Below the pieces are notes generated by a model. That model ran no database searches. It was not told where the DNA came from and saw only the letters and a program-made list of their open reading frames with translations. 64,000 bases of DNA from contig JAFTWU010000005.1 of assembly GCA_017465145.1 (NCBI GenBank), positions 83,394 through 147,393 of the forward strand, given 5' to 3'. Both the position numbers and the translations under genes were made by a program. Shown piece by piece: positions 10,734 through 63,423 of the stretch; the stretch's first letter is position 1; every line of letters begins with the position of its first letter. The DNA is from Clostridia bacterium. Lineage in GTDB: Bacteria > Bacillota > Clostridia > Christensenellales > Borkfalkiaceae.

Positions 10734-10740
10734 TAATTTG

Positions 10741-13956: not shown

Positions 13957-14093
13957 AAAAAACAAAACCTCCAAAGTTTTATGTATATATTGTACCATAT
14001 ATAAAAAATTTTTCAAGGGCTTTTTAAAATTTTTGTCAAAAAACGCGTGTTTTTTGTCAAAAAAACGCCATTTTGTTAAATTTTGCGTTTCGC

Positions 14094-14122
14094 TTGACTT
14101 TTTTAACTTTATAAATTACTAT
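14094..14122 (+). promoter_or_regulatory. Promoter TTGACT-17-TACTAT placed to start transcription at or next to the ATG of the next gene (leaderless candidate)
   Basis: ttgact 14094-14099, tactat 14117-14122, ATG at 14130 with no SD. Preceded by a tandem ttttgtcaaaaaacgc repeat (14031-14046, 14052-14068). Confidence 0.4.
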
Positions 14123-14129
14123 TAATATA

Positions 14130-15473: not shown

Positions 15474-15566
15474 CAAGCATAATTAATAGATTTATAATAG
15501 AAAATTAATAGGTATATAATATAAAATTTTCGTCAATACTCTCCGTAAAGAACGGGGAGTATTTTT

Positions 15567-15983: not shown

Positions 15984-16089
15984 TAAAGCACGTTCATAAA
16001 GGCGCAACAAAAAATTAACCGCTATAGGTATAATAAAAATTTTTAGGGTAATAATTACCCCAAAGTCAGTTAAAAAAAGGAGATTTTAT

Positions 16090-40625: not shown

Positions 40626-40702
40626 GGCGGCGTAGCTTAGTTGGTTATAGCGGCCGGTTCATACCCGGCAGGTCGTTGGTTCGAATCCGACCGCCGCTAC
40701 CA
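40626..40702 (+). tRNA. tRNA-Met (anticodon CAT), elongator-like
   Basis: 77 nt folded by hand. Acceptor ggcggcg/cgccgct, anticodon arm gccgg-ttCATac-ccggc, T-arm gttgg-ttcgaat-ccgac, encoded CCA. G1 and the absence of a GGG/CCC anticodon stem argue against an initiator. A lysidine-modified Ile2 tRNA is not excluded. Confidence 0.85.
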
Positions 40703-40751
40703 AATCTTAAAAAACGGCAGCCAAACGGTATGCACCAAATAAATATTAACC

Positions 40752-40826
40752 GGCCCCTTGGTCAAGCGGTTAAGACACCACCCTTTCACGGTGGTAACAT
40801 GGGTTCGATTCCCGTAGGGGTCACCA
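40752..40826 (+). tRNA. tRNA-Glu (anticodon TTC)
   Basis: 75 nt. Acceptor ggcccct/aggggtc, anticodon arm ccacc-ctTTCac-ggtgg, T-loop ggttcgattcc, encoded CCA. Confidence 0.9.
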
Positions 40827-42446: not shown

Positions 42447-43853
42447 ATGATTATGAAATGCAATGTAAGAATTTTAGATATTTCTGTAAAGAATTTAAAG
42501 AATTTAAACTCTGGAAATATTGAGTTTAATTCTAGAAAGCAAGTATTAAAAGGTAATTTTGGTTTTGAAAAATCTGATATAATTGGAATTTATGGACAAA
42601 ATGGAAGTTCTAAGTCTACAGTGATTAATGCTTTTTCAATTTTGAAAAAATTGTTTTCGGGTAAAGCATTATCTACAGAATTGTTGAATTATATATCAAA
42701 GACAGCTAATGAAAGTGGATTGTGCATTAGTTTTTTCATTGAAACAAATTCTAATAAATATATTGTGGATTATAATGTTGTTTTTACGATTGATGAACAA
42801 CGAGTAAAAGCAAGTATTAAAACAGAATCAATTTCTTATAAAAAATATAGTGACGGTGCATGGACAAAAATAGCTCCTATTTTTATTATAAATAACGAGG
42901 ATTTAGCTAATTTTATTACTCCTAAAATTAATTACGCTAAGTTAATTAAAGACAATAAAGAAATTTCATCTCAGCTTTTAGTTTTAAAAGGTGAAAAAAG
43001 TTCTGGGAATTTTAGCTTTATATTTTCTGAAGAATTCAAGAATATAATTGATAATATTGAGGAATTTAAGGAATGTGCAGGTTTTATAAATCACATAAAA
43101 ATTTATTCAGTACATTATATGCACTTGTATGACAATAGAGATATTAGCAAAATTACAGCTTTAGATACAATTCCTTTTTTCTACAAAACAGAAGATACAG
43201 ATACTGTTAATAGTACTGAGGGATATTTAACTTTATTCAATGATGGTAAAATAAGCATAAAGCATGAAGAAACCATAAAGGAATATATTAAAGAGATAAA
43301 TATTGTTTTAGAAAAATTAATACCAGGAGTCGTTGTTGGAATAGAAAATTTAGGCGAAACATTAGATAAAGATGGAGAGAAATGCTTTAAATATCAATTT
43401 ATTTCAATAAAAAATGGTTTTTCTATTCCTTTGCGATTAGAGTCGGATGGAATAAAAAAAATTGTTTCGCTTCTTTCATCGTTAGTAGATGCGTTTAATA
43501 ACCCTTATTCTATTTTAATAATTGATGAATTTGATTCGGGAATATTTGAGTATCTTTTAGGAGTTATATTAGATATATTTAAAACAAAAGGTGTAGGACA
43601 ATTATTATTTACATCACATAATTTGAGAGCGTTGGAAATTATTCAAGATGATATAATTTTTACAACTAATAATCCGGATGAGCGTTTTGTTAGAATTCCT
43701 TATGTTCAGTCTTCAAATAACCTTAGAAGAAAATATTTAAGAGATTTATTTTTGAACGAAACAGAATGCTTATCTAATAAAATTGATGGATACGATATTT
43801 ATAGAGCTTTTAAAGATGCAGGAGCCTTGTGTTTGTATGGCGAAAAAAAATAA
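42447..43853 (+). CDS. ABC-type (AAA_15/21-like) ATPase, PARIS AriA-like / AbiLi-like
   Basis: 468 aa. P-loop GQNGSSKST, signature-like ESDGIKK, Walker B ILIIDEFDSG, H-loop FTSHN. Confidence 0.75.
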   Translation: MIMKCNVRILDISVKNLKNLNSGNIEFNSRKQVLKGNFGFEKSDIIGIYGQNGSSKSTVINAFSILKKLFSGKALSTELLNYISKTANESGLCISFFIETNSNKYIVDYNVVFTIDEQRVKASIKTESISYKKYSDGAWTKIAPIFIINNEDLANFITPKINYAKLIKDNKEISSQLLVLKGEKSSGNFSFIFSEEFKNIIDNIEEFKECAGFINHIKIYSVHYMHLYDNRDISKITALDTIPFFYKTEDTDTVNSTEGYLTLFNDGKISIKHEETIKEYIKEINIVLEKLIPGVVVGIENLGETLDKDGEKCFKYQFISIKNGFSIPLRLESDGIKKIVSLLSSLVDAFNNPYSILIIDEFDSGIFEYLLGVILDIFKTKGVGQLLFTSHNLRALEIIQDDIIFTTNNPDERFVRIPYVQSSNNLRRKYLRDLFLNETECLSNKIDGYDIYRAFKDAGALCLYGEKK

Positions 43854-44547
43854 GAAAAAAGTCTTACTCGTTATATGTGAAGGGCTAAGTGATGATGTTA
43901 CTATACATAAAGCTCTTAATAACTTTGCTCAAAAACAACTTGACCGTATACAGGTTGAAATAACTGATGGAGATATAGCATATAAAGAAGATATAGATGA
44001 AACTAATTGTGTAGAAAAAGTTGCCAAAATAGTAAAAGATTTTAAAATGAAGAATTTTCTATATGCTTCGGATCTTTTTGCAGTAGTCCACATTATTGAT
44101 ACGGATGGAGCTTTTATAAAAGATTCTTCAATTGTGGAAAATAGGAGCTTAAACGACCTTGTTTTTACAGAGAATCAACTTTTGACACCAAATAAAAATA
44201 TAACATTAGAGAGATTTCACAAAAAACAAAAAATATATAAAAAATTATTAGAAGAAGAATATATCGATAATGTTAAGTATTTTAAGTTTTACTTTTCTAG
44301 AAATTTAGAGCACGCTTTATACGATAAGCCTAATGCAGCCAAGCCTGAGAAAATTGCATTATCAGATGAGTTCGAAAAAACATATAAAGAGGATGCGGAA
44401 GGTTTTTATAATATAATGAATTCTATATTGTTTGCGGTCCCTAACGATTATAATAAAAGTTGGGATTATATTTTAGCAAATAATAATTCCATTAATAGGT
44501 GTAGTAATTTTATTATCTTATTAGATATGATAAAGAATAATAATTAA
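43837..44547 (+). CDS. Toprim-domain partner (DUF4435/RloB-like; AriB-like / AbiLii-like)
   Basis: ATG 43837 (MAKKNKKKVLLVICEGLSDD). Toprim Glu in ICEG and DxD in HIIDTDG. Overlaps the ATPase gene by 17 nt across an A8 tract. Confidence 0.7.
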   Translation: MAKKNKKKVLLVICEGLSDDVTIHKALNNFAQKQLDRIQVEITDGDIAYKEDIDETNCVEKVAKIVKDFKMKNFLYASDLFAVVHIIDTDGAFIKDSSIVENRSLNDLVFTENQLLTPNKNITLERFHKKQKIYKKLLEEEYIDNVKYFKFYFSRNLEHALYDKPNAAKPEKIALSDEFEKTYKEDAEGFYNIMNSILFAVPNDYNKSWDYILANNNSINRCSNFIILLDMIKNNN

Positions 44548-45094: not shown

Positions 45095-45697
45095 ATGAAA
45101 AAATTTTATATTGGCGAAAATAAATATTTAGAGCAGAAGGTTTTGGCGTTTTATAATTGCGATTACGTTGGCTATCAAAAACAAGGCAACCCTGACTTTA
45201 TAAATCACCTTAAAAATATGACATATCAATACAATGAGTTAGATTTAGTTGAAGATTTTTTTCAGGTTTCTGAAAGGCTTGTTAAAGATATGGAAAGTAT
45301 TTTTAATAAAAGCGATTTTAAGAATTTTACAGTTTGCGTTATGCCTCGTTCTAAAAGGGAAAGCAAGTATAAACAAAGTCAACTAATGTACAAAAAAGCA
45401 ATTTCAAGTTGTGCTAATAAATTAGGTTTTATTAATGGCACGGATGCAATTATAAGAGTTAAAGACACTAAAACAACGCATAATTGGAGGCTTGAAAATG
45501 ATACGGGCGACAATCCATATAAAGGTATTACGAAAGACACTTGCAGGGTTTATTTAAGTAAAATTAAAGATAAAAATATTATTTTAGTTGACGATATCTA
45601 TACGGAAGGTGTTAACGTAATTGAAGATTGTATTCAATATCTATTTGATCTAGGCACAAAAAGTGTTATACTATACGTAACGGCAAAAACAAGGTAA
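45095..45697 (+). CDS. Phosphoribosyltransferase-domain protein (ShosT-like)
   Basis: 200 aa. PRPP-binding loop KNIILVDDIYTEGVNV near the C-terminus. SD aaggag. Confidence 0.65.
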   Translation: MKKFYIGENKYLEQKVLAFYNCDYVGYQKQGNPDFINHLKNMTYQYNELDLVEDFFQVSERLVKDMESIFNKSDFKNFTVCVMPRSKRESKYKQSQLMYKKAISSCANKLGFINGTDAIIRVKDTKTTHNWRLENDTGDNPYKGITKDTCRVYLSKIKDKNIILVDDIYTEGVNVIEDCIQYLFDLGTKSVILYVTAKTR

Positions 45698-45702
45698 AGA
45701 TT

Positions 45703-46530
45703 ATGAACTCAAATATTTCATTAAAACTTTTTGGTTTAATAAAAACGGGCGTTATAAAAACTAACGCTCACTTTTGGAAATCGTTTTATAATGAAGATTA
45801 TATAAACACTTTTCCTTGCGACTTACAAGCAATAAAACAAGAACTTGAAGCAAAAGGCATAAACGTCATAAGTGTTTTTGATAAAAACTTTCCTATTACA
45901 AACGCTAAACTTAAAAATAGTGAAAAGCCGTTTTTCTTTGCATATAAAGGCGATATAACGCTACTTAATAACGCTGATAAAAACGTTGCGGTTATAGGTG
46001 TTTTAACGCCAACTAACGAAACAGTAGAAAGAGAACAAAAAGTCATAAAAAGTTTAACTAAAAAGGGCTACAATATAGTTAGTGGGCTTGCAAAAGGTTG
46101 CGATACGGTTGCACATAGCGAAAGTATTAAAAACAATGCAAAAACTATTGTTTTTCTTCCGTCAACAATAGAAAATATTTATCCTAAAGAAAATGTAGGC
46201 TTAGCAAACAAAATCGTAGAAAATGGTGGACTTATAATAACCGAATACGTAAACGAGTCTAAAAACAAATACGAAACGGTTAAACGATTTATCGAACGTG
46301 ATAGGTTGCAAGCATTGTATTCAAAGGCCGTAATTTTAATTGCAAGTTATCGCAAAAATGAAGGCGATAGTGGTTCTCGCCACGCTTTTGAAAAGGCAAA
46401 ACAATACGGCAAAAAAAGGCTTGTTATGTATAGAGAAAGCGACTCTAACGATTTAACGTTTGGGTTAAATAAAGACTACGTTATGCAGGGTGAAAAAGTC
46501 GTATCGCAAAAAGAAATTGAGGGACTATAA
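45703..46530 (+). CDS. DprA/Smf-like (SLOG/Rossmann) protein (ShosA-like)
   Basis: 275 aa. NVAVIGVLTPT...IVSGLAKGCDTVAHSESIKNNAKTIVFLPSTIENIYPKEN...GGLIITEY matches the DprA core pattern. Confidence 0.7.
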   Translation: MNSNISLKLFGLIKTGVIKTNAHFWKSFYNEDYINTFPCDLQAIKQELEAKGINVISVFDKNFPITNAKLKNSEKPFFFAYKGDITLLNNADKNVAVIGVLTPTNETVEREQKVIKSLTKKGYNIVSGLAKGCDTVAHSESIKNNAKTIVFLPSTIENIYPKENVGLANKIVENGGLIITEYVNESKNKYETVKRFIERDRLQALYSKAVILIASYRKNEGDSGSRHAFEKAKQYGKKRLVMYRESDSNDLTFGLNKDYVMQGEKVVSQKEIEGL

Positions 46531-47004
46531 TTGGTTTACGTTGTAGATTTAGACGATACGTTAGTTTTGACAAAACACTTAAATAACGACGCCTACAATT
46601 TTGCTTTAGAGAAAAATGGTAAAAGTCGGATTAAAACTAATAAACGTCTAACACGAGAGAACTTTGGCGAAACGGCTAGCAAGAAATTAATAACCGACAA
46701 GCAAAATTATTTTGCTCAAAAGTGGCTTAAATATAGAGTGGTTGTTAACGAAGAAATATTAAAGATATTGCAAGAACAAGATAAAGAAAATTGCTATCTT
46801 TGGACAAGTGCAGATAAAAACCGAGCCGATTTTATATTAAAAGAACTTGATTTGTATAAGTACTTTAATAAAGTTATTTATGATGATAAAAAAGATTTGA
46901 ATAGTTCATTAAAAAGATTAAAAGACATTACCAAAAGTAACGTCTTTTTAATTTTTGAAGATGTTCAATCTAGTACTAAGAGTCTATGCTATACTAATAG
47001 GTGA
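46531..47004 (+). CDS. Small HAD-superfamily hydrolase
   Basis: 157 aa. TTG start directly after the preceding stop, with gaggga 7 nt upstream. Motif I VVDLDDTLV, motif II-like LWTSA, acidic motif YDDKKD. Confidence 0.6.
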   Translation: MVYVVDLDDTLVLTKHLNNDAYNFALEKNGKSRIKTNKRLTRENFGETASKKLITDKQNYFAQKWLKYRVVVNEEILKILQEQDKENCYLWTSADKNRADFILKELDLYKYFNKVIYDDKKDLNSSLKRLKDITKSNVFLIFEDVQSSTKSLCYTNR

Positions 47005-47188: not shown

Positions 47189-47800
47189 ATGACTAAAAAG
47201 AAAGTTTATACAATAGGTTATACAACCTTTGACATTGACAACTTTATAAAAGAATTAAAAGAGAATAAGATAACTTGTGTTGTTGACGTAAGAAGTTCTC
47301 CTAAGTCTAGTTATTATAAAGATTTTGATTCAGACGTTTTCGAAAGTCGTTTAAAAAACGAAGGAATTTTATATAGAAATTATGCTTTTGAATTTGGGGC
47401 AAGGCAGGAAGATAAGTCTTTGTATCCTAATGGTTATTTGGATTTTGAAATGTTTTCTAAGACTGCAAATTTTAAGCAAGGCGTAAAAAAATTAGAGTCC
47501 GGTATTAATTTAAATCAAACTTTTGCTCTGATGTGTGCGGAAAAAGATCCATATAATTGTCACAGATGTATAATGGTTGCAAGATTTTTGCAAGACTATG
47601 GCTTTGAGATTATTCATATCGTAGGGCATAACGAATTTGTTTCTCAAAAGGAAATTGAAGAAAGACTCATGAACGAATATTACCCTAAGCGCAACCAATT
47701 TTCGTTATTTCCAGAGGAGAATTTGAGCGATGAAGAGTGTTTATTATGCGCGTATCGAAAAAGAAATAAGGATATTGGGTTTAGGATAGAGGAGGAATAA
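47189..47800 (+). CDS. DUF488-family protein (long paralog)
   Basis: 203 aa. VYTIGYT, VVDVRSSPKS, MCAEKDPYNCHRC, EIIHI. Confidence 0.75.
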   Translation: MTKKKVYTIGYTTFDIDNFIKELKENKITCVVDVRSSPKSSYYKDFDSDVFESRLKNEGILYRNYAFEFGARQEDKSLYPNGYLDFEMFSKTANFKQGVKKLESGINLNQTFALMCAEKDPYNCHRCIMVARFLQDYGFEIIHIVGHNEFVSQKEIEERLMNEYYPKRNQFSLFPEENLSDEECLLCAYRKRNKDIGFRIEEE

Positions 47801-47801
47801 A

Positions 47802-48242
47802 ATGAAGTTATACACGATTGGGTTTACACAAAAATCGGCAAGAGAATTCTTTGAGCTCATAAAGAAAAACGAAATAGAATTGTTAATAGATATTAGATTA
47901 AACAACGTTTCTCAACTTGCGGGTTTTGCTAAAGGTAAGGATTTAGAATATTTTTTAACTGAAATTTGCAATTGCAAATACGTGCATGATGATTTGTTTG
48001 CTCCAACAAAAGAACTTTTGGAAGATTATCGTGCAAAAAAAACATCTTGGGATAAATATGAAGAAATCTTCTCTAATATAATCAAAGGTCGCAATCTTGT
48101 AGAAAGATTTAAAAAGCTTTATACAAAGAGTGAAAAAGTTTGTTTGTTATGTACAGAACCTACGGCGAAGCAATGTCATAGAAGACTTGTTGCAGAGTAC
48201 TTAAAAGATAATATGGAAGGAGTTGAAATAATCCACATCTAA
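47802..48242 (+). CDS. DUF488-family protein (short paralog)
   Basis: 146 aa. LYTIGFT, LIDIRLNN, LCTEPTAKQCHRR, EIIHI. Starts 1 nt after the preceding stop. Confidence 0.75.
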   Translation: MKLYTIGFTQKSAREFFELIKKNEIELLIDIRLNNVSQLAGFAKGKDLEYFLTEICNCKYVHDDLFAPTKELLEDYRAKKTSWDKYEEIFSNIIKGRNLVERFKKLYTKSEKVCLLCTEPTAKQCHRRLVAEYLKDNMEGVEIIHI

Positions 48243-48256
48243 TTGAGGGAAAACAA

Positions 48257-50110
48257 ATGAAGAAGCAAATATGTATTTTAACTAAATCATATAAACATGG
48301 CGGGTATTGTGTTGCAGGTGTAGACATCGAAACTAAAGAGTGGATTCGTTTAGTTAATAGCGATAATCCTAGTACCGATGAAATTAGAAAAGAGCAAATG
48401 ATTCTAAATGGGAAAGTAATAGACTGTTTAGATGCTTTAGAATATGATTTTATTAAAAACATTCCTAATTCTTGTCAAACAGAGAATTGGCTGTTAAATA
48501 ATACAATATCTCCTAGATTCATTAAGAGTATATCGCTTGAAGAACTTGCTGACATTGTAGAACTTGAAAAAGAAGAGGTTTTTATTCGCAATACTTCTAA
48601 TTTGTTGAATGAAGAAGAGGTGTCGGGAGTGAAACGCTCTTTATACATATTCCATGTGCAGAATTTAAAAATAGAAGCAACATCATACGAGCGCTTTGGA
48701 GAAATTAGATTTAGATATAAATGCGCTTTTGATTACAATGGTAATAAATATACAAACATTTCACTCACAGACCCAATATATAGAGACATTTCTCAAGATG
48801 GGCTTAATTTGGAGGATGCCTTAATAATAGCAAGTTTGCCATGTGTACCATATAGCGATGGCTCTTTCTATAAATTTGTAGCTAAAATTATTCCAGTTGA
48901 TAAGAACCTTGCATCATATATGGAAAAAAAGAACGAGGAAAGAGTAGAAACAATTGATGCTCATAAAACTCAATTGTTGCCTTCACCATTTGTTAAATAT
49001 GATTTAGTTGTTCAAGCACAACAAACGCCAGGTGTCGTTAGGTTTGAGAATTATGAGCAACTTAAGAGCAGTATAAGTAATGGAGTATCATATTATTCTA
49101 ATTTTGAATACACATTAGATAATTATCAATTAGCCTTAAAACACCATAATGAATTAAAACATGTAAAAAGCGCTTTAGAGAAGACCAAGAGAGAAATTGT
49201 AAAAAGTTATAATGCTCCACTTGAAACGGTAGAAAAGAGGATAGAAGAACTAATTAATCTAATAAAAGTTCCGTTCAAGAAACTTGACACATTCATAAAA
49301 CAAAACGAAAAAGAATCTAAGAAATATGAAATTTTAAAGTTTGCAAGAACATGTGCGACATCAAATGGCTTATGCGAACATTTGGATAACATAATAAATA
49401 GTCCAGCATTTTTTGATAGCAAATGGCTTAATGCATCTTGTGTAAGGTCGACTTGGAGGTCTGCAGTATTATTAAAAATAGGAAATGCAGTTAAAGACAT
49501 CGAATATATATTGTCTTTACAAAATGATAATGTTGCTAGTATTTTGGCTCATTATTATCAAACTTTATCTATTGACATGGTGAAAGAGTTTATTGATTCA
49601 CTACAACGTGCATCTCAATTTACAACTAAACATGAAAAAGAAGATAAAGTTAACAATACTGTAGTTAGTGAAACGCAACCTGCTTCTAAAGAAAAACTAG
49701 CAATTGGTGAAAATATAGAAGAAACTCAATCAAATTCAAATAGCGATATAAACTATTCGGATTATGAAATTTTAAGCTATGTTGCAAGCTCTATTAATCC
49801 ATACACAGGAGAGGTTATAACGGGTATCGATGACTATTTGAAAAATAAAATAATTGAAATAGCCAATAAATTTGAAAATGCATTGAGGGGAGTGAGTGCG
49901 CCATCAATAGAGAAAAAAAGTGAGTTAAAAACAAAACAACAAAGAGATGAGAAATTTCCAATGGCGTGGGAAAAATGGACAGAGGAAGAAGAATCAAGAT
50001 TAGTAAAAGAATTTAATCAAGGACTTTCAGTAGATGAAATTGCTTCTATGCATAATAGAAAAGAGGGAGGCATCCGTGCGAGGTTGAAGAAATTGGGGTT
50101 GATTGAATAA
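48257..50110 (+). CDS. 617-aa mosaic protein: unassigned N-terminal domain, DUF1351-like helical middle, C-terminal HTH
   Basis: SD gaggga. N-terminus ICILTKSYKHGGYCVAGVDIETKEWIRLV. Middle VRFENYEQLKSSI...KREIVKSYNAPLETVEKRIEELINLIK. C-terminus WEKWTEEEESRLVKEFNQGLSVDEIASMHNRKEGGIRARLKKLGL. Confidence 0.7.
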   Translation: MKKQICILTKSYKHGGYCVAGVDIETKEWIRLVNSDNPSTDEIRKEQMILNGKVIDCLDALEYDFIKNIPNSCQTENWLLNNTISPRFIKSISLEELADIVELEKEEVFIRNTSNLLNEEEVSGVKRSLYIFHVQNLKIEATSYERFGEIRFRYKCAFDYNGNKYTNISLTDPIYRDISQDGLNLEDALIIASLPCVPYSDGSFYKFVAKIIPVDKNLASYMEKKNEERVETIDAHKTQLLPSPFVKYDLVVQAQQTPGVVRFENYEQLKSSISNGVSYYSNFEYTLDNYQLALKHHNELKHVKSALEKTKREIVKSYNAPLETVEKRIEELINLIKVPFKKLDTFIKQNEKESKKYEILKFARTCATSNGLCEHLDNIINSPAFFDSKWLNASCVRSTWRSAVLLKIGNAVKDIEYILSLQNDNVASILAHYYQTLSIDMVKEFIDSLQRASQFTTKHEKEDKVNNTVVSETQPASKEKLAIGENIEETQSNSNSDINYSDYEILSYVASSINPYTGEVITGIDDYLKNKIIEIANKFENALRGVSAPSIEKKSELKTKQQRDEKFPMAWEKWTEEEESRLVKEFNQGLSVDEIASMHNRKEGGIRARLKKLGLIE

Positions 50111-55313: not shown

Positions 55314-56525
55314 TTATTCAAAATAGCCTTTATATTTTAGTTCTAAGTTACTTTTTGGGAACAAATATTTATGTAGTTCTATAAAGTAATCGTCGGTCAT
55401 AGACGCGATATAGTCAACCACGATTTGATTTTTTTCCGTTTCTTCATAGGCAATATCACGTTTATAGTAAGGCTTATTTATATATTCTATATGATGTTTA
55501 TAAACGGGGGAAGATAGGTTGCCGTTAATCAAATCGCAAAGTAACTTGTTATAAATTTCTTCCATCATTTGTTTAATGATGATATTGCTTTCATTATGCG
55601 CCTTATCAAGATAGATAATTTCGTAGTTATCGCGTTTTGCCTTGTTAAGCGCATCAAAACACTCTTTATCCATTTTGATATAAGGCTTATTATAACTATT
55701 TTCAATAATGTTAACCATAAGGTTATTTACTATTTCCGAATTTATAACGCCGATACCGCTGTCGTTAAATGAGAGATTTTCTAAAAGACGGCTCTTTTCG
55801 GCATCTTGTCTATCTTTTCCTAGATAAGCAATAATATCCGAAATTCGCATGACTGCGCCTTCTAAGGTAGACGGAATCATTTTTAGAACGTTTTCAGAGT
55901 CGATATAGCAATCTTCAATTTTTTTATCAAATTTATCAAAATTTGAAAGAACGGCAGGGCGATATTCGTTTAGTTCTATTTCACCGTTATGGCAAGCAAT
56001 ACCGTCAAGCGTTTGAAGTGAAAGGTTAAGCGGGAAAATTTTATCTAACACCCTAACGGAATGGATATTGTGGTTAAAACGCCTGTCTGTGTGGTTGCGG
56101 TATAATTCATCTAAAAACTTTTCGCCCGCGTGTCCAAACGGAGTATGGCCCATATCGTGCCCTAAAGAAATTGCCTCAATTAAATCAAGGTTAAGGTTTA
56201 ACGCTTTGCCGATAGTTCTTGCCGTTCTAGAAACTAATTGAACGTGAAGTGCCCGTCTAGAGATATCGTCGTTTTTATATAGTGAAAAAACTTGCGTTTT
56301 ATCCGTGTAACGATTATAAAAGGGGCAATTCAAAATTTTATCAATATCCCTAATAAACGCCGTACGCCAAACGTTAGCGTTATCATGTTCGTTGTCTTTT
56401 CGCCTTATAACGCTATTATCGGAGCAAAAGAATCTTGGCATAGTGCCGTTAAGCTTATCATTTTCTATTAAGTTTTCTAATTTCTTTGAAAGATTTTTAT
56501 AATTTGCCATACGCTTATTATACAT
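55314..56525 (-). CDS. HD-domain dNTP triphosphohydrolase (dGTPase-like)
   Basis: 403 aa. RRALHVQLVS...SLGHDMGHTPFGHAGEKFL...HN..S. Confidence 0.8.
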   Translation of the reverse strand: MYNKRMANYKNLSKKLENLIENDKLNGTMPRFFCSDNSVIRRKDNEHDNANVWRTAFIRDIDKILNCPFYNRYTDKTQVFSLYKNDDISRRALHVQLVSRTARTIGKALNLNLDLIEAISLGHDMGHTPFGHAGEKFLDELYRNHTDRRFNHNIHSVRVLDKIFPLNLSLQTLDGIACHNGEIELNEYRPAVLSNFDKFDKKIEDCYIDSENVLKMIPSTLEGAVMRISDIIAYLGKDRQDAEKSRLLENLSFNDSGIGVINSEIVNNLMVNIIENSYNKPYIKMDKECFDALNKAKRDNYEIIYLDKAHNESNIIIKQMMEEIYNKLLCDLINGNLSSPVYKHHIEYINKPYYKRDIAYEETEKNQIVVDYIASMTDDYFIELHKYLFPKSNLELKYKGYFE

Positions 56526-56610: not shown

Positions 56611-56628
56611 CACACGATTTTTGGTGTG
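56611..56628 (+). repeat. Motif copy 1 (cacacgatttttggtgtg)
   Basis: Member of the GCAC(T)ATTTTTGGTG family. Confidence 0.6.
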
Positions 56629-56794
56629 TTAAATTAAAACTAGACGTTGCAAATAAAGGTTTGCAACTTTTTTTATTTTGCATTGAAAATTAGTCATTTT
56701 TTCTATATGCCGTGTGATATAATCCGTTTGCGTGTGAGGGGGAAAGAATTAAAAAATTTATCAAAAAAATAATAACGAATTAAAAAATGATTTT

Positions 56795-56814
56795 ACTGTG
56801 CTATTTTTGGCGCT
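56795..56814 (+). repeat. Motif copy 2 (actgtgctatttttggcgct)
   Basis: Member of the same family. Confidence 0.6.
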
Positions 56815-56900: not shown

Positions 56901-56920
56901 AGTGCACTATTTTTGGTGTA
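56901..56920 (+). repeat. Motif copy 3 (agtgcactatttttggtgta)
   Basis: 48 nt upstream of the FtsH-like gene. Similarity to copy 5 extends ~25 nt further upstream. Confidence 0.7.
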
Positions 56921-56967: not shown

Positions 56968-58275
56968 ATGGTAGAAAAAGAACAAGTATCAGTTGTAGAA
57001 ATTGAAAAAACGTTTGAACCTGTTATCGGCTATAAGTCGATAAAAAATGAAATGATTAAGATTTGCGATATAATGAGAAATAGCGAATTTTATTCTAAGC
57101 TTGGCGTAAGTGTTCCTAACGGATTATTGCTTTCGGGTGAACCAGGCCTTGGCAAAACGCTTATGGCAAACTGCTTTATAAAAGCAAGTGGTAGAACGGC
57201 TTTTGTTTGCAGAAAAGATAAACCAGATGGCGACTTTGTAAACCACATTAAAAGCACTTTTGATGAAGCCGTTAAAAATGCTCCGTCAATAGTTTTTCTT
57301 GATGATATGGATAAGTTTGCTAATGGCGACGAGTATCATAAAAATAGTGAAGAATTCGTGACCGTGCAGTCTTGCATAGATGATTCAAAAAATAAAGAAG
57401 TTTTTGTTTTAGCAACAATAAATGATGAAGACGCTATTCCTATTTCTTTGCTTAGAGCAGGCAGATTCGATAATAGAATCGAAGTAAATTCTCCTAAAGG
57501 CGAAGACGCTGAAAAAATCGTTGAACATTATATAAAGAAAAAGAACTTCGTTTCGGACGTTGACGTTAAAACTATAACGAAACTTCTAAACGGGGCAAGT
57601 TGTGCAGAACTTGAAACCGTTATAAATCAAGCGGGCGTATATGCGGGTTTTAACAGAAAAGAAAAAATTGAAATGGACGATATCGTTAGGGCTTGCTTAA
57701 GAATTATTCATAATGCACCCGAAAGAGAACAAGCGCATTCGCCAGAAGTATTAAAGGCCGTTGCTTATCACGAAGCAGGGCACGCCGTTATTGCAGAAGT
57801 ATTAGAACCTGGTTCTGTTAACTTTGTTTCCGTTCGCTCTCACGGTGGAAGTACGGGTGGGTTTACCAACTACTATCAACCAGAAGAATATTGGATTAAA
57901 GAACAGTATATGGAAAATAGAGTTACCGTTATTCTTGGCGGTAAGGCTGCAACTGAAACGGTTTTTGGCGAAACTGACGTTGGTGCAAACAAGGATTTGC
58001 ATCGTGCATTTGATATTGTTGAACGCTTCGTTGATGATTATTGCTCTAATGGGTTTGATAGATGGCTTCAAGGCAGAGAATATTCTAATGGAGCTGTTGA
58101 GCGTCGTGATATGCAAATGGCAATTGAAATGGAAAACTTTTATAAAAAAGCCAAAAAGATTTTGATTGATAACCGTGAGTTCTTAGATAAACTTGCAACT
58201 GCGCTTATAAATAAAGACGTTTTAACAAGCGTGGAAATTGAAGCAATAAAGGCTACCTGCAAAATGGTAGCCTAA
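56968..58275 (+). CDS. Soluble FtsH-like protein: AAA+ ATPase + M41 zinc metalloprotease, no TM region
   Basis: 435 aa. Walker A GEPGLGKT, Walker B VFLDDMD, SRH LLRAGRFD, zinc site HEAGHAV, M41 block GGKAATETVFGETDVGANKDL. Starts directly with the ATPase domain. Confidence 0.85.
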   Translation: MVEKEQVSVVEIEKTFEPVIGYKSIKNEMIKICDIMRNSEFYSKLGVSVPNGLLLSGEPGLGKTLMANCFIKASGRTAFVCRKDKPDGDFVNHIKSTFDEAVKNAPSIVFLDDMDKFANGDEYHKNSEEFVTVQSCIDDSKNKEVFVLATINDEDAIPISLLRAGRFDNRIEVNSPKGEDAEKIVEHYIKKKNFVSDVDVKTITKLLNGASCAELETVINQAGVYAGFNRKEKIEMDDIVRACLRIIHNAPEREQAHSPEVLKAVAYHEAGHAVIAEVLEPGSVNFVSVRSHGGSTGGFTNYYQPEEYWIKEQYMENRVTVILGGKAATETVFGETDVGANKDLHRAFDIVERFVDDYCSNGFDRWLQGREYSNGAVERRDMQMAIEMENFYKKAKKILIDNREFLDKLATALINKDVLTSVEIEAIKATCKMVA

Positions 58276-58349
58276 AAACGCATTGCCCTTGACTTTTTAT
58301 AGGTGAAGAGTAAAATAGTAATATAAACGTTAAAAGGAGAAAAGATATT

Positions 58350-58568
58350 ATGGGAAAATTACCCGTTATTCAATGTGGAAAACTTTGCGCAAATTGTGTT
58401 TATTGGGGTGGGGAAAGGACTATAAATGGCTTTTTTGGTCGTGCAGAAGTTGATATTAATTGTCAAACAAAGGGTGTTTGCAGTAATTTGAAAGGATTTT
58501 ATAACCAACAAATGATTTGGCAAGCAACTTGCCCCGGATTTACTCGTCACCCTGCAATTAAAGGTTAA
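58350..58568 (+). CDS. 72-aa cysteine-rich protein
   Basis: Strong SD aaaaggag. 7 Cys, including CGKLCANC (C-x3-C-x2-C). Preferred over the antisense 58359-58577 ORF. Confidence 0.6.
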   Translation: MGKLPVIQCGKLCANCVYWGGERTINGFFGRAEVDINCQTKGVCSNLKGFYNQQMIWQATCPGFTRHPAIKG

Positions 58569-58605
58569 GTTGCGCATTAAAAGCTAATTTAAGGAGACTT
58601 AACTT

Positions 58606-58935
58606 GTGAAGAGAATTGAATTTAAATATAGCAATCACGCTTGGGGCTTTAATAAAGAAGAACTTTACGTAATTGACTTTGAAAAGAAACTATATGCACA
58701 TTTTGATAAAGGGCAATTAGATGATCAATTGTCCTTGCCTGATGACATATTAAAACTAATGGAAGAATATTTTGAAAAAATCTATATTGAATTTCCTAAA
58801 GACGTCTTTGCGTATGACGCGCCTATGTGGACGTTGACGATAGATGATAAAACTTGTACTAGAACTGCCGTCAAAGATATGGATGCACAGTATAAAACTT
58901 TATCTGAGTTATTTGAAAAGATAAAAAATGCGTAA
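58606..58935 (+). CDS. Hypothetical 109-aa protein
   Basis: GTG start 9 nt after aaggag. No motif recognised. Confidence 0.55.
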   Translation: MKRIEFKYSNHAWGFNKEELYVIDFEKKLYAHFDKGQLDDQLSLPDDILKLMEEYFEKIYIEFPKDVFAYDAPMWTLTIDDKTCTRTAVKDMDAQYKTLSELFEKIKNA

Positions 58936-59008
58936 CAGTGAGAGCGTTATTTAGTGATACTAGGTGCCGCCTTGTGCTATAATAGATTTGCAAATTTAGG
59001 GGTAAAAA

Positions 59009-59371
59009 ATGACAATAGATAACGTAACCTTATTTGAAGAAGATTTTTCTAAGGTGGAAGATTTTAATTCGTTTATTGAAAAAAGGTATCCTAATTTTAA
59101 GGTTGATGCCGATATTTTTGATAGTGCATATTATAAAACGATTAAAAATACGCACGGACTAAGCGAGCACGAATATATTTATAGAGCATTGAAAGGCTTT
59201 TTAGAAAAAATTCTAAAAGATGAAACGAAATGTGAAAAACCTATTGTTATTTACGATGCGTTTTTCCTTTTTGATGAAGGCAAAAACGTTAGCGAACTTT
59301 ATGAATATATGTCTAAAACGGATAGACCTATATTTATTCACGTTCCTAAAGGAATAAATTTAACTTTTTGA
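59009..59371 (+). CDS. Hypothetical 120-aa protein
   Basis: SD agggg. No motif recognised. Confidence 0.55.
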   Translation: MTIDNVTLFEEDFSKVEDFNSFIEKRYPNFKVDADIFDSAYYKTIKNTHGLSEHEYIYRALKGFLEKILKDETKCEKPIVIYDAFFLFDEGKNVSELYEYMSKTDRPIFIHVPKGINLTF

Positions 59372-59388
59372 AATGGAGCAAACAGAAG

Positions 59389-60120
59389 ATGATTGGAAAA
59401 CATATAGAGGATTTTTTAAGGAAGTGGGCAAAAACAGGGAGGCCTGAAATTTATAATGAATTTAGTTTTCAATTTGAGCTAGGTGGATATTTAAGAAAAA
59501 AATTACCGAAATATAAAGTTCAATTTGAAAGAAATATTTCAGACTTTTTTATTGATGAGAAGAATTATCAAAATAGAAACAATTTAGTTAAAGATAATGA
59601 GACTATTAAATATAAATTTTACAAAAAAGAGATAGATATAGTTGTTTTTGAAGGAGATAACCCATGGGGTGCAACGGAAAAATATGCTATCGAATTAAAG
59701 TATATTATGCCGTCGGACCCTACTACTGATAAAATGCACGAAATGCTAGAAGACGTAGCCTTTACCGCACAACTAAGGGATCAAAATAATTTTGAAAATG
59801 TTAGTATTGTAGGAAATGATCAAAAAATAAAATCAATAACAAAACAAAGTTTTTGCCATACATATGCCGTTACATTAACGAATAGAAACGATTTTTATGA
59901 ATGTCGGAAAGGTTGGAAAGGTGATAAGCAAGATCTTGAAAGCACGGGTGCCGAATCGAGATATTATGTTTTTAGAACGGAAGGTACAGGAAAAAATGGT
60001 ATTAGTTGTGCAGGGGGAAAGTATGAAAAAGGTGGTAAATTAGCCAGGGATGTACCTAGTTTTACAAGCAAGTGGCAAGACTTACAAAATGATTTTAGGT
60101 ATTATATGGTAGAGTGGTAA
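59389..60120 (+). CDS. PD-(D/E)xK (restriction-endonuclease-like) nuclease candidate
   Basis: ATG 59389 lies 10 nt after ggag (the TTG at 59368 overlaps the previous stop). EFSFQFELGGY...KKEIDIVVFEG-x12-YAIELKY. Confidence 0.6.
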   Translation: MIGKHIEDFLRKWAKTGRPEIYNEFSFQFELGGYLRKKLPKYKVQFERNISDFFIDEKNYQNRNNLVKDNETIKYKFYKKEIDIVVFEGDNPWGATEKYAIELKYIMPSDPTTDKMHEMLEDVAFTAQLRDQNNFENVSIVGNDQKIKSITKQSFCHTYAVTLTNRNDFYECRKGWKGDKQDLESTGAESRYYVFRTEGTGKNGISCAGGKYEKGGKLARDVPSFTSKWQDLQNDFRYYMVEW

Positions 60121-60195: not shown

Positions 60196-60215
60196 ACACC
60201 CCAAAAATAGTACAA
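60196..60215 (-). repeat. Motif copy 4, inverted (reverse complement ttgtactatttttggggtgt)
   Basis: Just after the stop of the nuclease gene. Confidence 0.55.
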
Positions 60216-60230
60216 TAAATATAATATAAT

Positions 60231-60264
60231 GACACTATAGTGAAATCTATGGCGTCATTTTTTT
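60231..60264 (+). terminator. Terminator of the FtsH-like cluster
   Basis: gacactatag/ctatggcgtc (8 of 10 paired) followed by attttttt. Confidence 0.6.
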
Positions 60265-60433: not shown

Positions 60434-60453
60434 AGCGCACTATTTTTAGTGCC
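60434..60453 (+). repeat. Motif copy 5 (agcgcactatttttagtgcc; palindromic CACTA-tttt-TAGTG)
   Basis: Upstream of the LRR/WYL operon. Confidence 0.7.
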
Positions 60454-60612: not shown

Positions 60613-61434
60613 ATGATTATTGTTGTTGAAAAGGGTGTATTAAAAGAAGTAAACGTTGATTATGAAAAGGATATTGGCGTTAAAGAATTTGCTATTCCTG
60701 ACGGGGTAGCTATTCTCGCAGATGAAAGCCTAGCTCATTTGCCTTTAGAAGTAGAAATGCTTTATATCCCTAAGTCAGTTAAAAAAATTCACGAAGGGGC
60801 GTTTTTTGGCGAAGGCAGTAACTGGGAAAACCTTAAAAACATTATTGTAGAAGAAGGCAACAAAAACTATAAAAGCCAAACGGGTTGTTTAATTGATATC
60901 AACTCTAACACCGTAATACTTGGTACGGAAAACGCTATTATTCCTAACGGAATTGAAAAAATTGGCGTTTACGCTTTCCGTCAAAGAGCTGGTCTAACAG
61001 AGATTACAATTCCCGAAAGCGTTAAAGAAGTTGACTTGCAAGCCTTTGCATGTTGTAATAATCTTAAAAAGGTAACCGTTTTAGGCGAGAAAACAAATCT
61101 TGATTATCTTTGCTTTATTTTAGATACGGCGATAGAAGAATTTAATCTTCCCGAAAAAGCTGATTACGAATTTATAGACGGCTGTTTAGTTAAAAAGTCT
61201 TGTGAAACGCTTTTAATGCTTACTGAAAAGGGCGAAATTCCCAAAAACATCGTAACGATATGGACTTGGGCGTGTGCTAGATACTGTAAGGACGTAGTCG
61301 TTCCTGAAACGGTTGTTAGTTTTGCTGAAAACGCGTTTTTGTTGCTTGGCGGTGGAAAGCTTAAAGTTAAAAAAGATAGCCCCGCGCATAAGTATGCAGT
61401 AGAAAACGAACTGAATTACGAAATTATTAGATAA
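60613..61434 (+). CDS. Cytoplasmic BspA-type LRR protein
   Basis: 273 aa, no signal peptide. LRR_5-like repeats (IPKSVKKIHEGAFFG, IPNGIEKIGVYAFRQRAGLTEITIPESVKEVDLQAFACCNNLKKV). Confidence 0.75.
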   Translation: MIIVVEKGVLKEVNVDYEKDIGVKEFAIPDGVAILADESLAHLPLEVEMLYIPKSVKKIHEGAFFGEGSNWENLKNIIVEEGNKNYKSQTGCLIDINSNTVILGTENAIIPNGIEKIGVYAFRQRAGLTEITIPESVKEVDLQAFACCNNLKKVTVLGEKTNLDYLCFILDTAIEEFNLPEKADYEFIDGCLVKKSCETLLMLTEKGEIPKNIVTIWTWACARYCKDVVVPETVVSFAENAFLLLGGGKLKVKKDSPAHKYAVENELNYEIIR

Positions 61435-61446: not shown

Positions 61447-63423
61447 ATGAGAAAGATTAACCGCGAATTTACAGAAGAACAAGGATATAAAAAGGCGCAA
61501 ATATTATACGTTTTGCACGTTTTAGAAAGAGATACGGATAGAAATAATACTTTAACGCAGGCAGAGATTGCCGATAGAGTTAAAGAACTTCGTGGTGAAG
61601 TTTACGATGACGAACCGCAAGATAAAGACAAAAGGACGGATATTCGTTCTACGGGCAGAGCACTTAGAATACTTAAGGACGTTGGATATAATATTCACGG
61701 TGTAAATATGACCGGTGAAGATGGCGTAGTTCATCAAAAAACGCGCAAAGGCATTTGGCTTGAAAAAGAAATTAGTGATGAAAAATTGCAAATACTTATA
61801 GATACGATTTTATTTGCTAACTATATTGGCAAAGCAGAAGCAAAAGAACTTATAGACAGTTTAATTTCGCTTGGGGGACCAACCATTAGAGAAAAAAAGA
61901 GTGCAAGCGCAAGGGTAGACGGGGGAAAAGTTTACCATAGAGAAGACAACGACTTTTTTACCGAGCTTAGAAAAATAAACGAGGCTATGGAATTAAAAGA
62001 GCCAAAGCGAATTGCCTTTAAGTATGCAAGATATAAGTTTGATAAGGCTAATGATAAATTCGTATTAGAAAAAGCGCACGAACACGAAGTTAGCCCCTAT
62101 CACTTTATAGTACAAAAAGGACATTATTACCTTGTGGGGTATAATCATAAAAGGGAAAACTTGTGGCACTATCGCCTTGATTACATAAAAGACGTAGAAA
62201 TTTTAAAAGAATATATCAAGCCGAGAAATGAAACGGAATTAAAGGGTAAGGACATAGGTAAATACGCCTTAGAACGTCCCTATATGTTTGCTGGAAAGGC
62301 TGAAGGTATAGAAGTTAGAATAAGTGCCGATAGAATTGGAATTTTGTTCGATACTTTTGGTGAATCGTTTAGGCGAATCAAAGATAACGGCAACACGATA
62401 GACTTTATGCTATATTGCACCGAAGAAAATGCGTTCCATTGGGCAATGCAATACGGCTCACACGTAGAAGTATTAAAGCCACAGTCTTTAAGAAACAGAA
62501 TTCGCTATCACGTTGAAAATATGATGTTTAATTATTTGCGTGACGACGGGGATAGATACACCGAAGCAATCAGACTTGCAAGAAGCAGGAAGATACTTAA
62601 CCTTGAAGGAATAGACCTTGCGGGCAAGACTAAACACCTTAATCTTAAAAACGTTCGCACGATTCTTTTATCTAACAATAAAATAGACAACGTTGATTTT
62701 ATTAAGAATATGCCTTCACTAAGGCACGTTTCTATCAAAAATAACCCTATTACCGATTTAAGCCCGTTAAAAGAGTGTAAGTTGTTAACAAAATTAGAAC
62801 TTGCAAACTTAAACGTAAAGGATATAGAGCCTATTGCGGATTTGCCGATAGAAATACTTTATTTAGGCTTTGGAAAAACTGAAGACCTTTCCGCCGTTTA
62901 TAAACTAAAGAATTTAAGGTGGCTAAGGGCAAGTGAAACGTGTGCAGATTATAATAAAACGCTTTCAACTAATTGGGAAGAATTTGAAAAACGTGGCGTA
63001 AGTACTTGGATTAGCGAAAGAGAATGCAATAACGTGAACACCAACAACGGCACATATATTAACGCATATTATCCCTATAACTTGTTAAAGAGCGTGTTTG
63101 GCAGAGATAACGTTTGGGTTGGTAGCCACGAAGAAATTTCTTTAGCGGTAGATAAGGTCGTTGAAAAATTCACCGACAGGGAAAAAGCCTATTTAGATTT
63201 AATTTATAAGCAAAGGGTTTCTAATAGAGATGCAAGAAAAACGCTTACTTTAAGTGAAAGTGAATTTAGAAGTTTGCAAAACGACATTTTAAGAAAATTT
63301 AGAAATCCACTATTTACCGATTCTCTTGAAAAATTCGTTGAGGAAGAAGACCCTCAAAAAAATTATAGTTTAGCTGATGTTATAGAAAGAAAAAAAGAAA
63401 TAGAAAAAAATTCTAAAAACTAA
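61447..63423 (+). CDS. wHTH-WYL-WCX regulator fused to internalin-type LRRs and a C-terminal sigma-r4/LuxR-like HTH
   Basis: 658 aa. N-terminal HTH (LTQAEIADRV...GRALRILKDVGYNI). WYL core VSPYHFIVQKGHYYLVGYNHKRENLWHYRLDYIKDVEIL. LRRs LSNNKIDNVDFIKNMPSLRHVSIKNNPITDLSPLKECKLLTKLELANLNVKDIEPI. C-terminus FTDREKAYLDLIYKQRVSNRDARKTLTLSESEFRSLQNDILRKFRN. Confidence 0.75.
   Translation: MRKINREFTEEQGYKKAQILYVLHVLERDTDRNNTLTQAEIADRVKELRGEVYDDEPQDKDKRTDIRSTGRALRILKDVGYNIHGVNMTGEDGVVHQKTRKGIWLEKEISDEKLQILIDTILFANYIGKAEAKELIDSLISLGGPTIREKKSASARVDGGKVYHREDNDFFTELRKINEAMELKEPKRIAFKYARYKFDKANDKFVLEKAHEHEVSPYHFIVQKGHYYLVGYNHKRENLWHYRLDYIKDVEILKEYIKPRNETELKGKDIGKYALERPYMFAGKAEGIEVRISADRIGILFDTFGESFRRIKDNGNTIDFMLYCTEENAFHWAMQYGSHVEVLKPQSLRNRIRYHVENMMFNYLRDDGDRYTEAIRLARSRKILNLEGIDLAGKTKHLNLKNVRTILLSNNKIDNVDFIKNMPSLRHVSIKNNPITDLSPLKECKLLTKLELANLNVKDIEPIADLPIEILYLGFGKTEDLSAVYKLKNLRWLRASETCADYNKTLSTNWEEFEKRGVSTWISERECNNVNTNNGTYINAYYPYNLLKSVFGRDNVWVGSHEEISLAVDKVVEKFTDREKAYLDLIYKQRVSNRDARKTLTLSESEFRSLQNDILRKFRNPLFTDSLEKFVEEEDPQKNYSLADVIERKKEIEKNSKN

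Follow-up and report, generated by a model that had tools for sequence, protein, structure and literature searches.

A soluble FtsH-like AAA-M41 protease and its WYL-domain partner: a candidate two-gene conflict module with interchangeable cargo in gut Firmicutes

We analysed a stretch of 64,000 nucleotides (nt) from a Borkfalkiaceae genome (Clostridia bacterium, assembly GCA_017465145.1, contig JAFTWU010000005.1), hereafter the window, and focused on a gene for a soluble FtsH-like AAA+/M41 Zn-protease (gene 1) and the four genes that follow it on the same strand (genes 2–5), the last of which encodes a predicted PD-(D/E)xK-type nuclease. An initial annotation, made from the sequence alone, had proposed that these five genes form one defence system. 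We found that they do not recur as a set in other genomes, and that the conserved partner of the protease appears to be a WYL-domain protein, likely a sensor or regulator, whose gene lies further downstream in the window. With confidence a little short of even, we read the protease and the WYL protein as a two-gene, WYL-controlled cytosolic AAA-M41 module of the conflict or defence type, which would move horizontally among gut Firmicutes, with genes 2–5 as independent cargo.

Gene 1 (56968–58275, + strand; 435 aa) is the conserved backbone gene of the locus. Pfam assigned to it an AAA domain (PF00004, 1e-18), a Peptidase_M41 domain (PF01434, 7e-25) and, weakly, AAA_lid_3. FtsH is a universal, membrane-anchored quality-control protease. 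Canonical FtsH/HflB (MEROPS M41, TIGR01241) shares with gene 1 the Walker A motif, the sensor-1 Asn, the two arginines of the second region of homology (SRH), the AAA lid, the HEAGH motif and the Asp that provides the third ligand; however, it has N-terminal transmembrane (TM) helices and a periplasmic domain and is universal and essential, whereas gene 1 lacks both and is accessory and patchy. Gene 1 aligned only with the cytosolic part of FtsH (TIGR01241 positions 156–597, 226 bits against an equivalog cut-off of 600) and remained below the cut-off of the canonical FtsH model NF008004 (130 bits; cut-off 1008). The best PDB matches were also FtsH cytosolic regions, at about 1e-60 (2dhr at 9e-61). 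No hydrophobic or TM segment was detected in gene 1 (maximum KD19 hydropathy 1.01), and only about 15 residues precede the AAA module. Pfam, TIGR01241, PDB and hydropathy thus bear out the earlier description of an AAA+ domain fused to M41 without a TM or periplasmic N-terminus, and support the prediction of a soluble, anchor-less FtsH-type AAA-M41 protease.

The catalytic residues were compared across 76 family members that were 48–100% identical. Walker A (G-x-P-G-x-G-K-T/S) was kept in 76/76, with one P-to-Q exception. Sensor-1 N152 and the SRH arginines R163 and R166 were invariant in all 76, as were the M41 site H268/E269/H272 (HExxH) and the third Zn ligand D343, these M41 residues being aligned to the FtsH motifs. 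Walker B reads L-D-D in every member, with an Asp in the place of the catalytic Glu (DE in canonical FtsH, DD in gene 1). The pore-1 loop of the family is about five residues shorter than that of FtsH: F90, invariant in 76/76, and V91 align with the Phe-Val of FtsH MFVG, and the subsequent GVGA is deleted, with the Gly gone. From these residues, we infer that gene 1 would be active as an ATP-dependent Zn-protease whose ATP turnover may be slow or switch-like.

The four genes downstream, all on the + strand, encode a basic 72-aa protein (gene 2; 58350–58568), an acidic, near-orphan 109-aa protein with a GTG start (gene 3; 58606–58935), an acidic 120-aa protein (gene 4; 59009–59371) and the 243-aa predicted nuclease, which belongs to a family without annotation (gene 5; 59389–60120). 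The start of gene 5 was taken as the ATG at 59389; the list of open reading frames (ORFs) has an upstream TTG at 59368. A Shine-Dalgarno sequence of the GGAG/AGGAG type was located 7–10 nt before each of genes 1–5, the intergenic gaps measured 74, 37, 73 and 17 nt, and our scan detected no terminator-like site on the + strand within the five genes. A hairpin at 60229–60264 (+), scored by its folding energy (−15.6 kcal/mol, z = −5.2 versus shuffles) and followed by U7, was identified as the intrinsic terminator that closes the unit. Because of these ribosome-binding sites (RBSs), the gaps, the lack of an internal + terminator and the terminator after gene 5, genes 1–5 look like a single transcription unit. 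The initial annotation had correctly placed the five co-directional ORFs, each with a Shine-Dalgarno sequence, and the terminator, though it gave gene 2 seven Cys residues where we counted six (CX3CX2C plus three more).

We searched the window proteins by tblastn against 85 protease-centred loci; loci are cited by L numbers, and the counts include the window's own contigs, L001 and L002. The WYL protein was found in 45 loci, the DUF2779 protein in 18 and the LRR_5 protein in 10. Gene 2 and gene 4 were each detected in three loci (one each beyond L001/L002), gene 3 in L001 and L002 only, and gene 5 in L001 only. Across about 100 related loci, the full five-gene set was never found together outside contigs of the same strain or species. 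The identical protease occurred on eight contigs, of which six were collapsed as places similar to L001, which holds the full cluster, and L002 (3.2 kb) ends within gene 4.

We then compared eight lineages with an 82–92% identical protease, namely L185/L186, L189/L190, L187/L188, L007, L006, L010, L176 and L008. The downstream genes differed in 7/8 of them, and only L185/L186 (protease 90%) kept genes 2 and 3: there the protease is followed by gene 2 (79%), gene 3 (55%), an unrelated 120-aa gene, a SprT-like gene, a metallophosphatase gene, gene 4 (79%) and genes for proteins of 276 aa and 101 aa. Genes 2–5 were all absent from L189/L190 (90%), and none was found downstream in L187/L188 (89%), where we detected only a 27% gene-2-like ORF about 5 kb upstream. 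There were no genes 2–5 in the readable downstream flank of L007 (89%; 2.2 kb), L006 (92%; 0.7 kb) and L010 (82%). In L176 (86%) and L008 (83%), gene 4 alone was present, five genes downstream and directly after a metallophosphatase gene. Gene 5 was absent from all eight lineages and stood beside no close protease homologue.

Since the genes do not co-occur elsewhere, the five-gene unit proposed by the initial annotation is not upheld. That proposal casts the protease as sensor or activator and the PD-(D/E)xK nuclease as effector, with an inhibitor, substrate or adaptor role for the small proteins. The apparent single transcription unit with its short gaps and single terminator speaks for it, as do the stability of the cluster within the species (the eight contigs with an identical protease), the genes 2–3 that follow the protease in one more lineage and the small, acidic nature of genes 3 and 4. 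We nevertheless consider it very unlikely, given the other downstream genes in seven of the eight close lineages, the gene 5 relatives that stand alone in other islands and never with a close protease homologue, and the constant partner of gene 4, which is a metallophosphatase and neither protease nor nuclease. An action of the protease on the nuclease through the small proteins is not supported either, the genes not being co-inherited. Judging by these neighbourhoods, genes 2–5 would be interchangeable cargo, co-transcribed with the protease here yet functionally independent of it.

The linkage of the protease to WYL genes was examined in 46 loci in which 5 kb or more flank the protease on either side. 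A WYL gene was located no more than 10 kb from the protease in 32/46 loci and within two ORFs in 20/46. Of 47 WYL genes, 29 lay within 2 kb of the protease, when 24.5% were expected from flank length (binomial p = 7e-8). We found 13 WYL genes directly adjacent to the protease gene, with gaps of 26–192 nt: 9 downstream and co-directional, 3 upstream and co-directional, and 1 divergent. The identities of the two proteins co-varied (Mantel test, Spearman r = 0.24; 0/500 permutations), and locus pairs with proteases 77–98% identical had WYL proteins 70–95% identical, even at differing gene order. In L004, L019, L020, L021, L022 and L023, for example, the proteases were 77–92% and the WYL proteins 70–89% identical, with the WYL gene upstream or downstream and different intervening genes. 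Finally, some pairs stand in otherwise ordinary surroundings. L050 has an FBPase gene, one small unannotated reverse ORF, the protease–WYL pair and a nucleotidyltransferase-family (CTP_transf_like) gene; the pair is followed by a GGGtGRT gene in L031 and by a MatE/cytidylate-kinase gene in L037, and is preceded by P-type ATPase and NUDIX genes in L065. Because the pair adjoins housekeeping genes in several genomes, where other accessory genes are few or absent, protease and WYL gene can be taken as the minimal module.

In the window, the WYL gene (61447–63423, +) lies outside the stretch covered by the initial annotation and encodes a 658-aa protein with WYL and WCX domains, internalin-like leucine-rich repeats (LRRs) and a weak sigma-70 region-4-like C-terminus. 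WYL comes first and WCX follows (PF13280 3e-10, PF25583 7.7e-7, PADLOC WYL 1.2e-25), and an N-terminal helix-turn-helix is assumed. In most loci, the WYL partners are proteins of about 330–350 aa. Upstream of the WYL gene by 12 nt is a gene for a 273-aa BspA-type LRR_5 protein (60613–61434, +), a backbone gene of the clade that was 76–83% identical in L176, L182, L185, L187 and L189. The related islands share one order: DUF2779 (−) and dGTPase-like HD (−) genes, the protease, variable cassettes, LRR_5, WYL-LRR, a fragment of DNA polymerase III alpha (PolIII-alpha) and a small ABC-type ATPase. The variable cassettes comprised Macro, YAcAr, SprT-like, metallophosphatase plus gene 4, RNase T, FtsK-like and DUF1810 genes, together with genes 2, 3 and 5. 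Such a mosaic would be accounted for if the conserved flanks recombined homologously, which is probably how the cargo is exchanged. The WYL-LRR protein was only 34–61% identical between islands of the window clade, against 73–90% for the protease, 76–83% for LRR_5 and 72–88% for the HD protein, and therefore it either evolves fast or is exchanged between islands.

We also examined a quasi-palindromic motif of the GCACTA-N4-TAGTGC type. A search for GCACTATTTTTGGTG with up to 3 mismatches gave 11 matches against 2.6 expected, a number that 0/100 shuffles reached, and 6 of the 11 flank the two operons. The promoter-proximal copy (56904–56918, +) lies about 64–65 nt before the protease ATG and the best palindromic copy, GCACTATTTTTAGTGC (60437–60451, +; to 60452), about 176–177 nt before the LRR_5/WYL operon. 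An inverted copy (60199–60213, −) marks the 3' end of the cargo block, and weaker copies occur at 56612–56626 and 56798–56812. The two operons also have a 17-nt RBS/start region in common, identical at 56954 and 60599, so that both the bracketing motif copies and the shared leader reported in the initial annotation are real. These positions were conserved. In the window, L006, L008 and L176, the motif precedes a −10-like hexamer by 12–13 nt and the protease ATG by about 65 nt; in the window, L176 and L182, it also precedes the LRR_5 ATG by about 177 nt. The reverse motif and terminator formed a conserved 3' boundary of the cargo block in L182, L176 and L008. Copies were located at 2954, 8982 (−), 10102 and 14979 of L176 and at 896 and 6472 (−) of L008. 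In twelve close-clade loci (about 120 kb), the degenerate motif occurred 12 times, when about 0.05 occurrences were expected by chance, as estimated from base composition. The motif may be a shared operator or promoter element, most simply one bound by the WYL-LRR protein of the island. An integron-attC-like or other cassette recombination site was ruled out by the fixed promoter distance before both operons and the quasi-palindromic form.

Relatives of the protease were found in up to 227 genomes among 185,579 species representatives, with a patchy distribution that was mostly within Clostridia; the best 80 of the 227 were 48–92% identical. The main taxa among these 80 were Christensenellaceae, Oscillospiraceae, Acutalibacteraceae and Lachnospiraceae; Erysipelotrichaceae and Selenomonadaceae were represented too, the latter with the isolate Schwartzia succinivorans DSM 10502 among them. 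Gut metagenomes contained hundreds of homologues, and nearly all members measured 417–468 aa. The family was nearly absent from phage records, where only canonical FtsH at about 27% identity was retrieved. In IMG/VR, a single contig exceeded 40%, at 48% identity (L096, IMGVR_UViG_2558860139_000002). Positions 52–16320 of this contig form an integrative element, in which genes for a D5-type primase and two large serine recombinases are followed by those for GmrSD, the protease and an HD protein, by two unknown genes, and by a WYL and a KAP NTPase gene; despite its viral listing in IMG/VR, no virion hallmark was present among its 10 annotated genes. A phage gene or prophage module was thus ruled out. 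PLSDB returned one plasmid only, the Butyrivibrio proteoclasticus megaplasmid pCY186, on which a 43% identical homologue stands in a single run of co-directional genes that also holds McrBC, two WYL genes, Rep genes, DnaX, a PolIII-alpha-like gene, DnaA/Hda, PolC and DnaB. With this single relative at 43%, the identity of a plasmid gene was ruled out as well.

If the two-gene reading holds, the module could work as follows. The WYL or WYL-LRR protein would bind the quasi-palindromic motif before both operons and hold them under control, and a ligand or invader cue sensed by its WYL/LRR domains would alter that control. The protease, as a hexamer-type machine, would then unfold and degrade one or more specific cytosolic proteins, either of the invader or of the host and its regulation. 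In the window clade, the protease and WYL genes would have been pulled apart to bracket a recombination-prone stretch whose cargo varies by strain. A stronger form of this reading, which we regard as possible though doubtful, is that protease and WYL(-LRR) protein make up an immune module not previously described: the fast-evolving WYL/LRR protein would sense the invader and unleash the protease via the motif, with a protective outcome, and the space between the genes would capture defence genes such as the gene-5 family.

Several observations weigh against a WYL-controlled defence module. No WYL gene was found within 10 kb in 14/46 well-flanked loci, and the protease–WYL linkage could be partly indirect, because WYL regulators go with many defence islands. 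The exact motif was not found outside the close clade. The unfoldase activity of the family may be atypical because of the Walker B Glu-to-Asp change throughout the family and the shortened pore-1 loop. It is only the neighbourhood that points to defence, and many recurrent neighbours are replication, repair or nucleotide-processing genes (PolIII-alpha fragment, PolC, DnaX, LigA, SNF2, Macro, SprT-like, phosphatases), which would fit mobile-element establishment or counter-defence equally well. The main rival follows this line: the protease would be a backbone gene in a family of mobile elements, derived from megaplasmids or integrative elements, and serve establishment, replication control or counter-defence, for instance by degrading host defence or regulatory proteins, and the cargo would be anti-defence genes. 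The replication genes in the pCY186 array (Rep, DnaX, PolIII-alpha-like, DnaA/Hda, PolC, DnaB) agree with it, and so do the PolIII-alpha fragment that recurs in 10 loci, the LigA, SNF2, MoxR/VWA and ClpP neighbours of one protease subfamily, the recombinases and D5-type primase of L096, and the Macro, YAcAr, SprT-like, metallophosphatase and RNase T cargo, classes known from counter-defence. We judge it rather unlikely all the same. Several protease–WYL pairs adjoin housekeeping genes, and the annotated genes around them include no mobility gene. The Pfam-annotated genes of the window island (several small ORFs had no match) comprise neither an integrase nor a relaxase or Rep, plasmid and viral collections contain almost no member of the family, and the identifiable window neighbours are defence systems and not anti-defence genes.

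Less likely, along with the five-gene proposal, is a stress or DNA-damage regulatory module in which a WYL factor of the PafBC/DriD type is controlled by, or controls, a dedicated cytosolic protease and the island location is incidental. In Actinobacteria, genes for PafBC-type WYL factors are linked to those for an AAA+ proteolytic machine, and the protease–WYL pairs in chromosomal, housekeeping surroundings would suit such a role. The very patchy distribution of the protease family, the hypervariable neighbourhoods, repeatedly with McrBC, GmrSD, dGTPase and KAP, and the fast divergence of WYL-LRR relative to the protease, which is typical of conflict genes, make it distinctly improbable. That gene 1 is instead a decaying or redundant housekeeping FtsH paralogue, its anchor lost and without a specific role, is hardly credible and is excluded by the conservation pattern: although its identity to the cytosolic part of canonical FtsH is 27–31% and its scores fall far below the equivalog cut-off, the length of 417–468 aa is kept, the catalytic residues are invariant in 76 members of several Firmicutes families, and there are hundreds of metagenome clusters.

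We next compared the protease–WYL module with known systems. IetAS (Gao et al. 2020) reportedly consists of IetA, an FtsH-related AAA ATPase, and IetS, a subtilisin-like protease. It has been described as a plasmid-stabilising toxin–antitoxin pair with an unknown anti-phage mechanism (PMC13069673). Both IetAS and gene 1 bring together an AAA ATPase of the classical clade and a protease in an accessory plasmid or defence setting, and the AAA part of gene 1, and this part only, matched IetA models (PADLOC 1.8e-22, NCBIfam IteA 3.7e-18); however, gene 1 scored 65.8 bits against the IetA equivalog NF042959, below its cut-off of 510. No IetS-like S8 protease, or any other protease, was detected in genes 2–5 or the flanking genes. 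IetAS has a separate serine protease, whereas gene 1 combines the ATPase and an M41 Zn-metalloprotease in one chain. FtsH-clade AAA+ proteins are also part of predicted conflict systems, the FtsH-containing vWA-MoxR ternary systems of multicellular Actinobacteria, Deltaproteobacteria and Planctomycetes (Kaur, Burroughs, Iyer, Aravind 2020; PMC7159879). Their FtsH proteins have two AAA domains, the first inactive, and MoxR and vWA partners, none of which is found at gene 1; with architecture, partners and taxa all different, a ternary system was ruled out.

The WYL partners resemble the regulators of the BrxR/CapW type (Picton 2022; Blankenchip 2022) in having WYL and WCX domains and in standing directly beside an accessory gene in defence islands. 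They differ in that the WYL gene is downstream of the protease in 9/13 adjacent pairs, and in that the window clade adds internalin-like LRRs and a sigma-region-4-like tail; no protease partner is mentioned in the papers on these regulators (Picton 2022; Blankenchip 2022). The cargo arrangement recalls defence operons and hotspots, such as the Hma-embedded PADLOC candidates, where conserved outer genes likewise surround strain-variable, unrelated genes, but the outer genes here (the protease on one side; LRR_5, WYL and PolIII-alpha fragment on the other) are not a recognised defence system. The protease–WYL module would thus combine two known kinds of element, the FtsH family and WYL-regulated accessory modules. 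A described defence system was ruled out, as PADLOC, NCBIfam, PHROGs and Pfam gave AAA-level IetA matches for gene 1 and no system match for genes 2–5, and the literature searched contained no account of a soluble FtsH-like protease family or of its WYL linkage. The initial annotation had likewise named no matching defence system, and this stands.

Known protease-based conflict modules include IetAS, BrxL, Lit and CapP. Should the two-gene reading be correct, an ATP-dependent metalloprotease would join this short list, and the module would offer a handle on what WYL/LRR sensors recognise and on how regulated proteolysis stops an invader. The locus is a clear case of a defence-type module collecting unrelated cargo, and thereby a source of candidates, among them the gene-5 nuclease family and the pair of metallophosphatase and gene 4. 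It also advises caution in genome scanning, as an operon that looks neat in a single genome does not count as a system before co-occurrence has been checked.

Among the cargo genes, genes 2–4 had zero matches in Pfam, PADLOC, NCBIfam and PHROGs, in line with the earlier failure to assign a motif to genes 3 and 4. The only PDB match of gene 2 was an insignificant one to high-potential iron–sulfur protein (HiPIP; E = 0.2). Relatives of gene 2 occurred in differing positions, at 79–88% identity in L185/L186 and L182/L183 and at 51% in L031. Gene 3 had 9 relatives in 1.84 billion representatives, and a relative (55%) follows gene 2 in L185/L186 only. Gene 4 had 33 relatives, each at least 69% identical. 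Its AlphaFold2 model (predicted local distance difference test, pLDDT, 88) weakly resembled P-loop/RecA-like alpha/beta domains, and the structure search gave no significant match. Homologues of gene 4 were always found directly downstream of a calcineurin-like metallophosphatase gene (L008, L176–L180, L182, L183 and L185; e.g. L176 7284–8363), which suggests a two-gene unit of an enzyme plus a partner or inhibitor; in the window, gene 4 is present without the metallophosphatase.

The gene 5 family comprised 360 relatives without annotation. E24, Q28, E30, E47, K79, D83, E102, K104 and D122 were invariant in 39 homologues, E24 standing for the Glu in the N-terminal helix that is characteristic of the PD-(D/E)xK superfamily. 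The AlphaFold2 model (pLDDT 92; predicted template modelling score 0.90) placed D83 in strand 81–88 and E102/K104 in strand 98–105, on neighbouring strands as expected of a restriction-endonuclease fold. The restriction-endonuclease-like core recognised in the initial annotation therefore has the invariant D83 and E102-x-K104 on adjacent strands of the model. Gene 5 had neither a Pfam nor a PDB sequence match. Foldseek returned nothing at E ≤ 1e-3 (best PDB E 0.054), and in the viral library it retrieved a haloviral 'PD-(D/E)XK nuclease' (probability 0.98, E 3.7e-3) and Cas4-like proteins (best viral E about 3e-3, probability 0.95–0.98). The top lists were almost entirely PD-(D/E)xK proteins, including Avs3, EcoRI, Bse634I, EcoRV, DrdV, CinB, Card1, Exo5 and Dna2, but with TM-scores of just 0.2–0.3. 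Gene 5 is likely a PD-(D/E)xK-type nuclease of a stand-alone family. Its relatives were located nine genes from a 61%-type protease in a long array, beside a rolling-circle Rep and Fic, or between a type I restriction–modification system and AbiGi; the sole result of a profile search for the family was a distant member close to the L041 WYL gene.

Some other neighbours of the protease also recur. The dGTPase-like HD protein upstream in the window (55314–56525, −; PADLOC dGTPase 9e-43) occupied the same position, with 72–88% identity, in L179, L185, L187 and L189. Between its gene and the protease promoter region there is a bidirectional terminator-like hairpin (56646–56667; GTTGCAAA...TTTGCAAC) with T-runs on both sides. 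The PolIII-alpha fragment, just past the window end (L001 16524–17555), is a free-standing protein of about 340 aa with the DNA_pol3_alpha and finger domains only; it stands directly after the WYL gene and is constant in the L003, L004, L176, L182, L185, L187 and L189 islands. On pCY186, a 481-aa PolIII-alpha relative lies directly upstream of the protease gene (L086 13427–14869). A family that we call c3 (about 220–310 aa, roughly 270) abuts the protease in 17 loci (e.g. L078 11336–12154) and had neither a Pfam nor a PADLOC match. By eye, it looks like an ABC-type ATPase that lost the P-loop: the N-terminal strand is of the ABC type, and both an LSxxE signature-like motif and a Walker-B-like hhhhDE are present. 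Finally, an HD protein of about 190 aa recurs beside the protease in L056, L057 and L096.

The window cluster is part of a low-GC island (0.26–0.35 against about 0.40) that starts just past tRNA-Met/tRNA-Glu (40626–40826), likely the left boundary of an island of about 25 kb. No integrase was present among the annotated island genes, either within the window or over the next 10 kb of L001. We identified an AbiLi/AriA-like ABC ATPase (AAA_21; PADLOC AbiLi 1.7e-26) overlapping a 254-aa ORF without a family match (42447–44547), which together may form a two-gene Abi-type system; a Shosta-like pair of a 200-aa ShosT-like protein (PADLOC 1.2e-10) and a DprA-like ShosA (4e-54) (45095–47004); and a complete PADLOC candidate PDC-M45 (47189–50110), made up of two DUF488 proteins (one M45C, 6e-57; the other presumably M45B) and a DuOB-DUF1351 fusion (M45A, 2.7e-28). 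McrBC, a Cas4-like DUF2779 protein and the dGTPase-like HD protein are also carried. Because of these Shosta, PDC-M45, McrBC, dGTPase, AbiLi-like and Cas4-like genes, the surroundings represent a real defence island; PADLOC and Pfam recovered the McrBC and dNTPase that the initial annotation had named next to the cluster and added Shosta and PDC-M45. Other protease loci had GmrSD, KAP NTPase and PDDEXK_4 genes as neighbours, and PADLOC gave many defence-like matches (SspE/GmrSD, GajB-like, DRT-like, HEC-06) among 111 recurrent neighbour clusters, a qualitative result without a background set. After the Shosta-like pair of the window, we found a gene for a NIF/HAD-type phosphatase, which is not part of the described Shosta.

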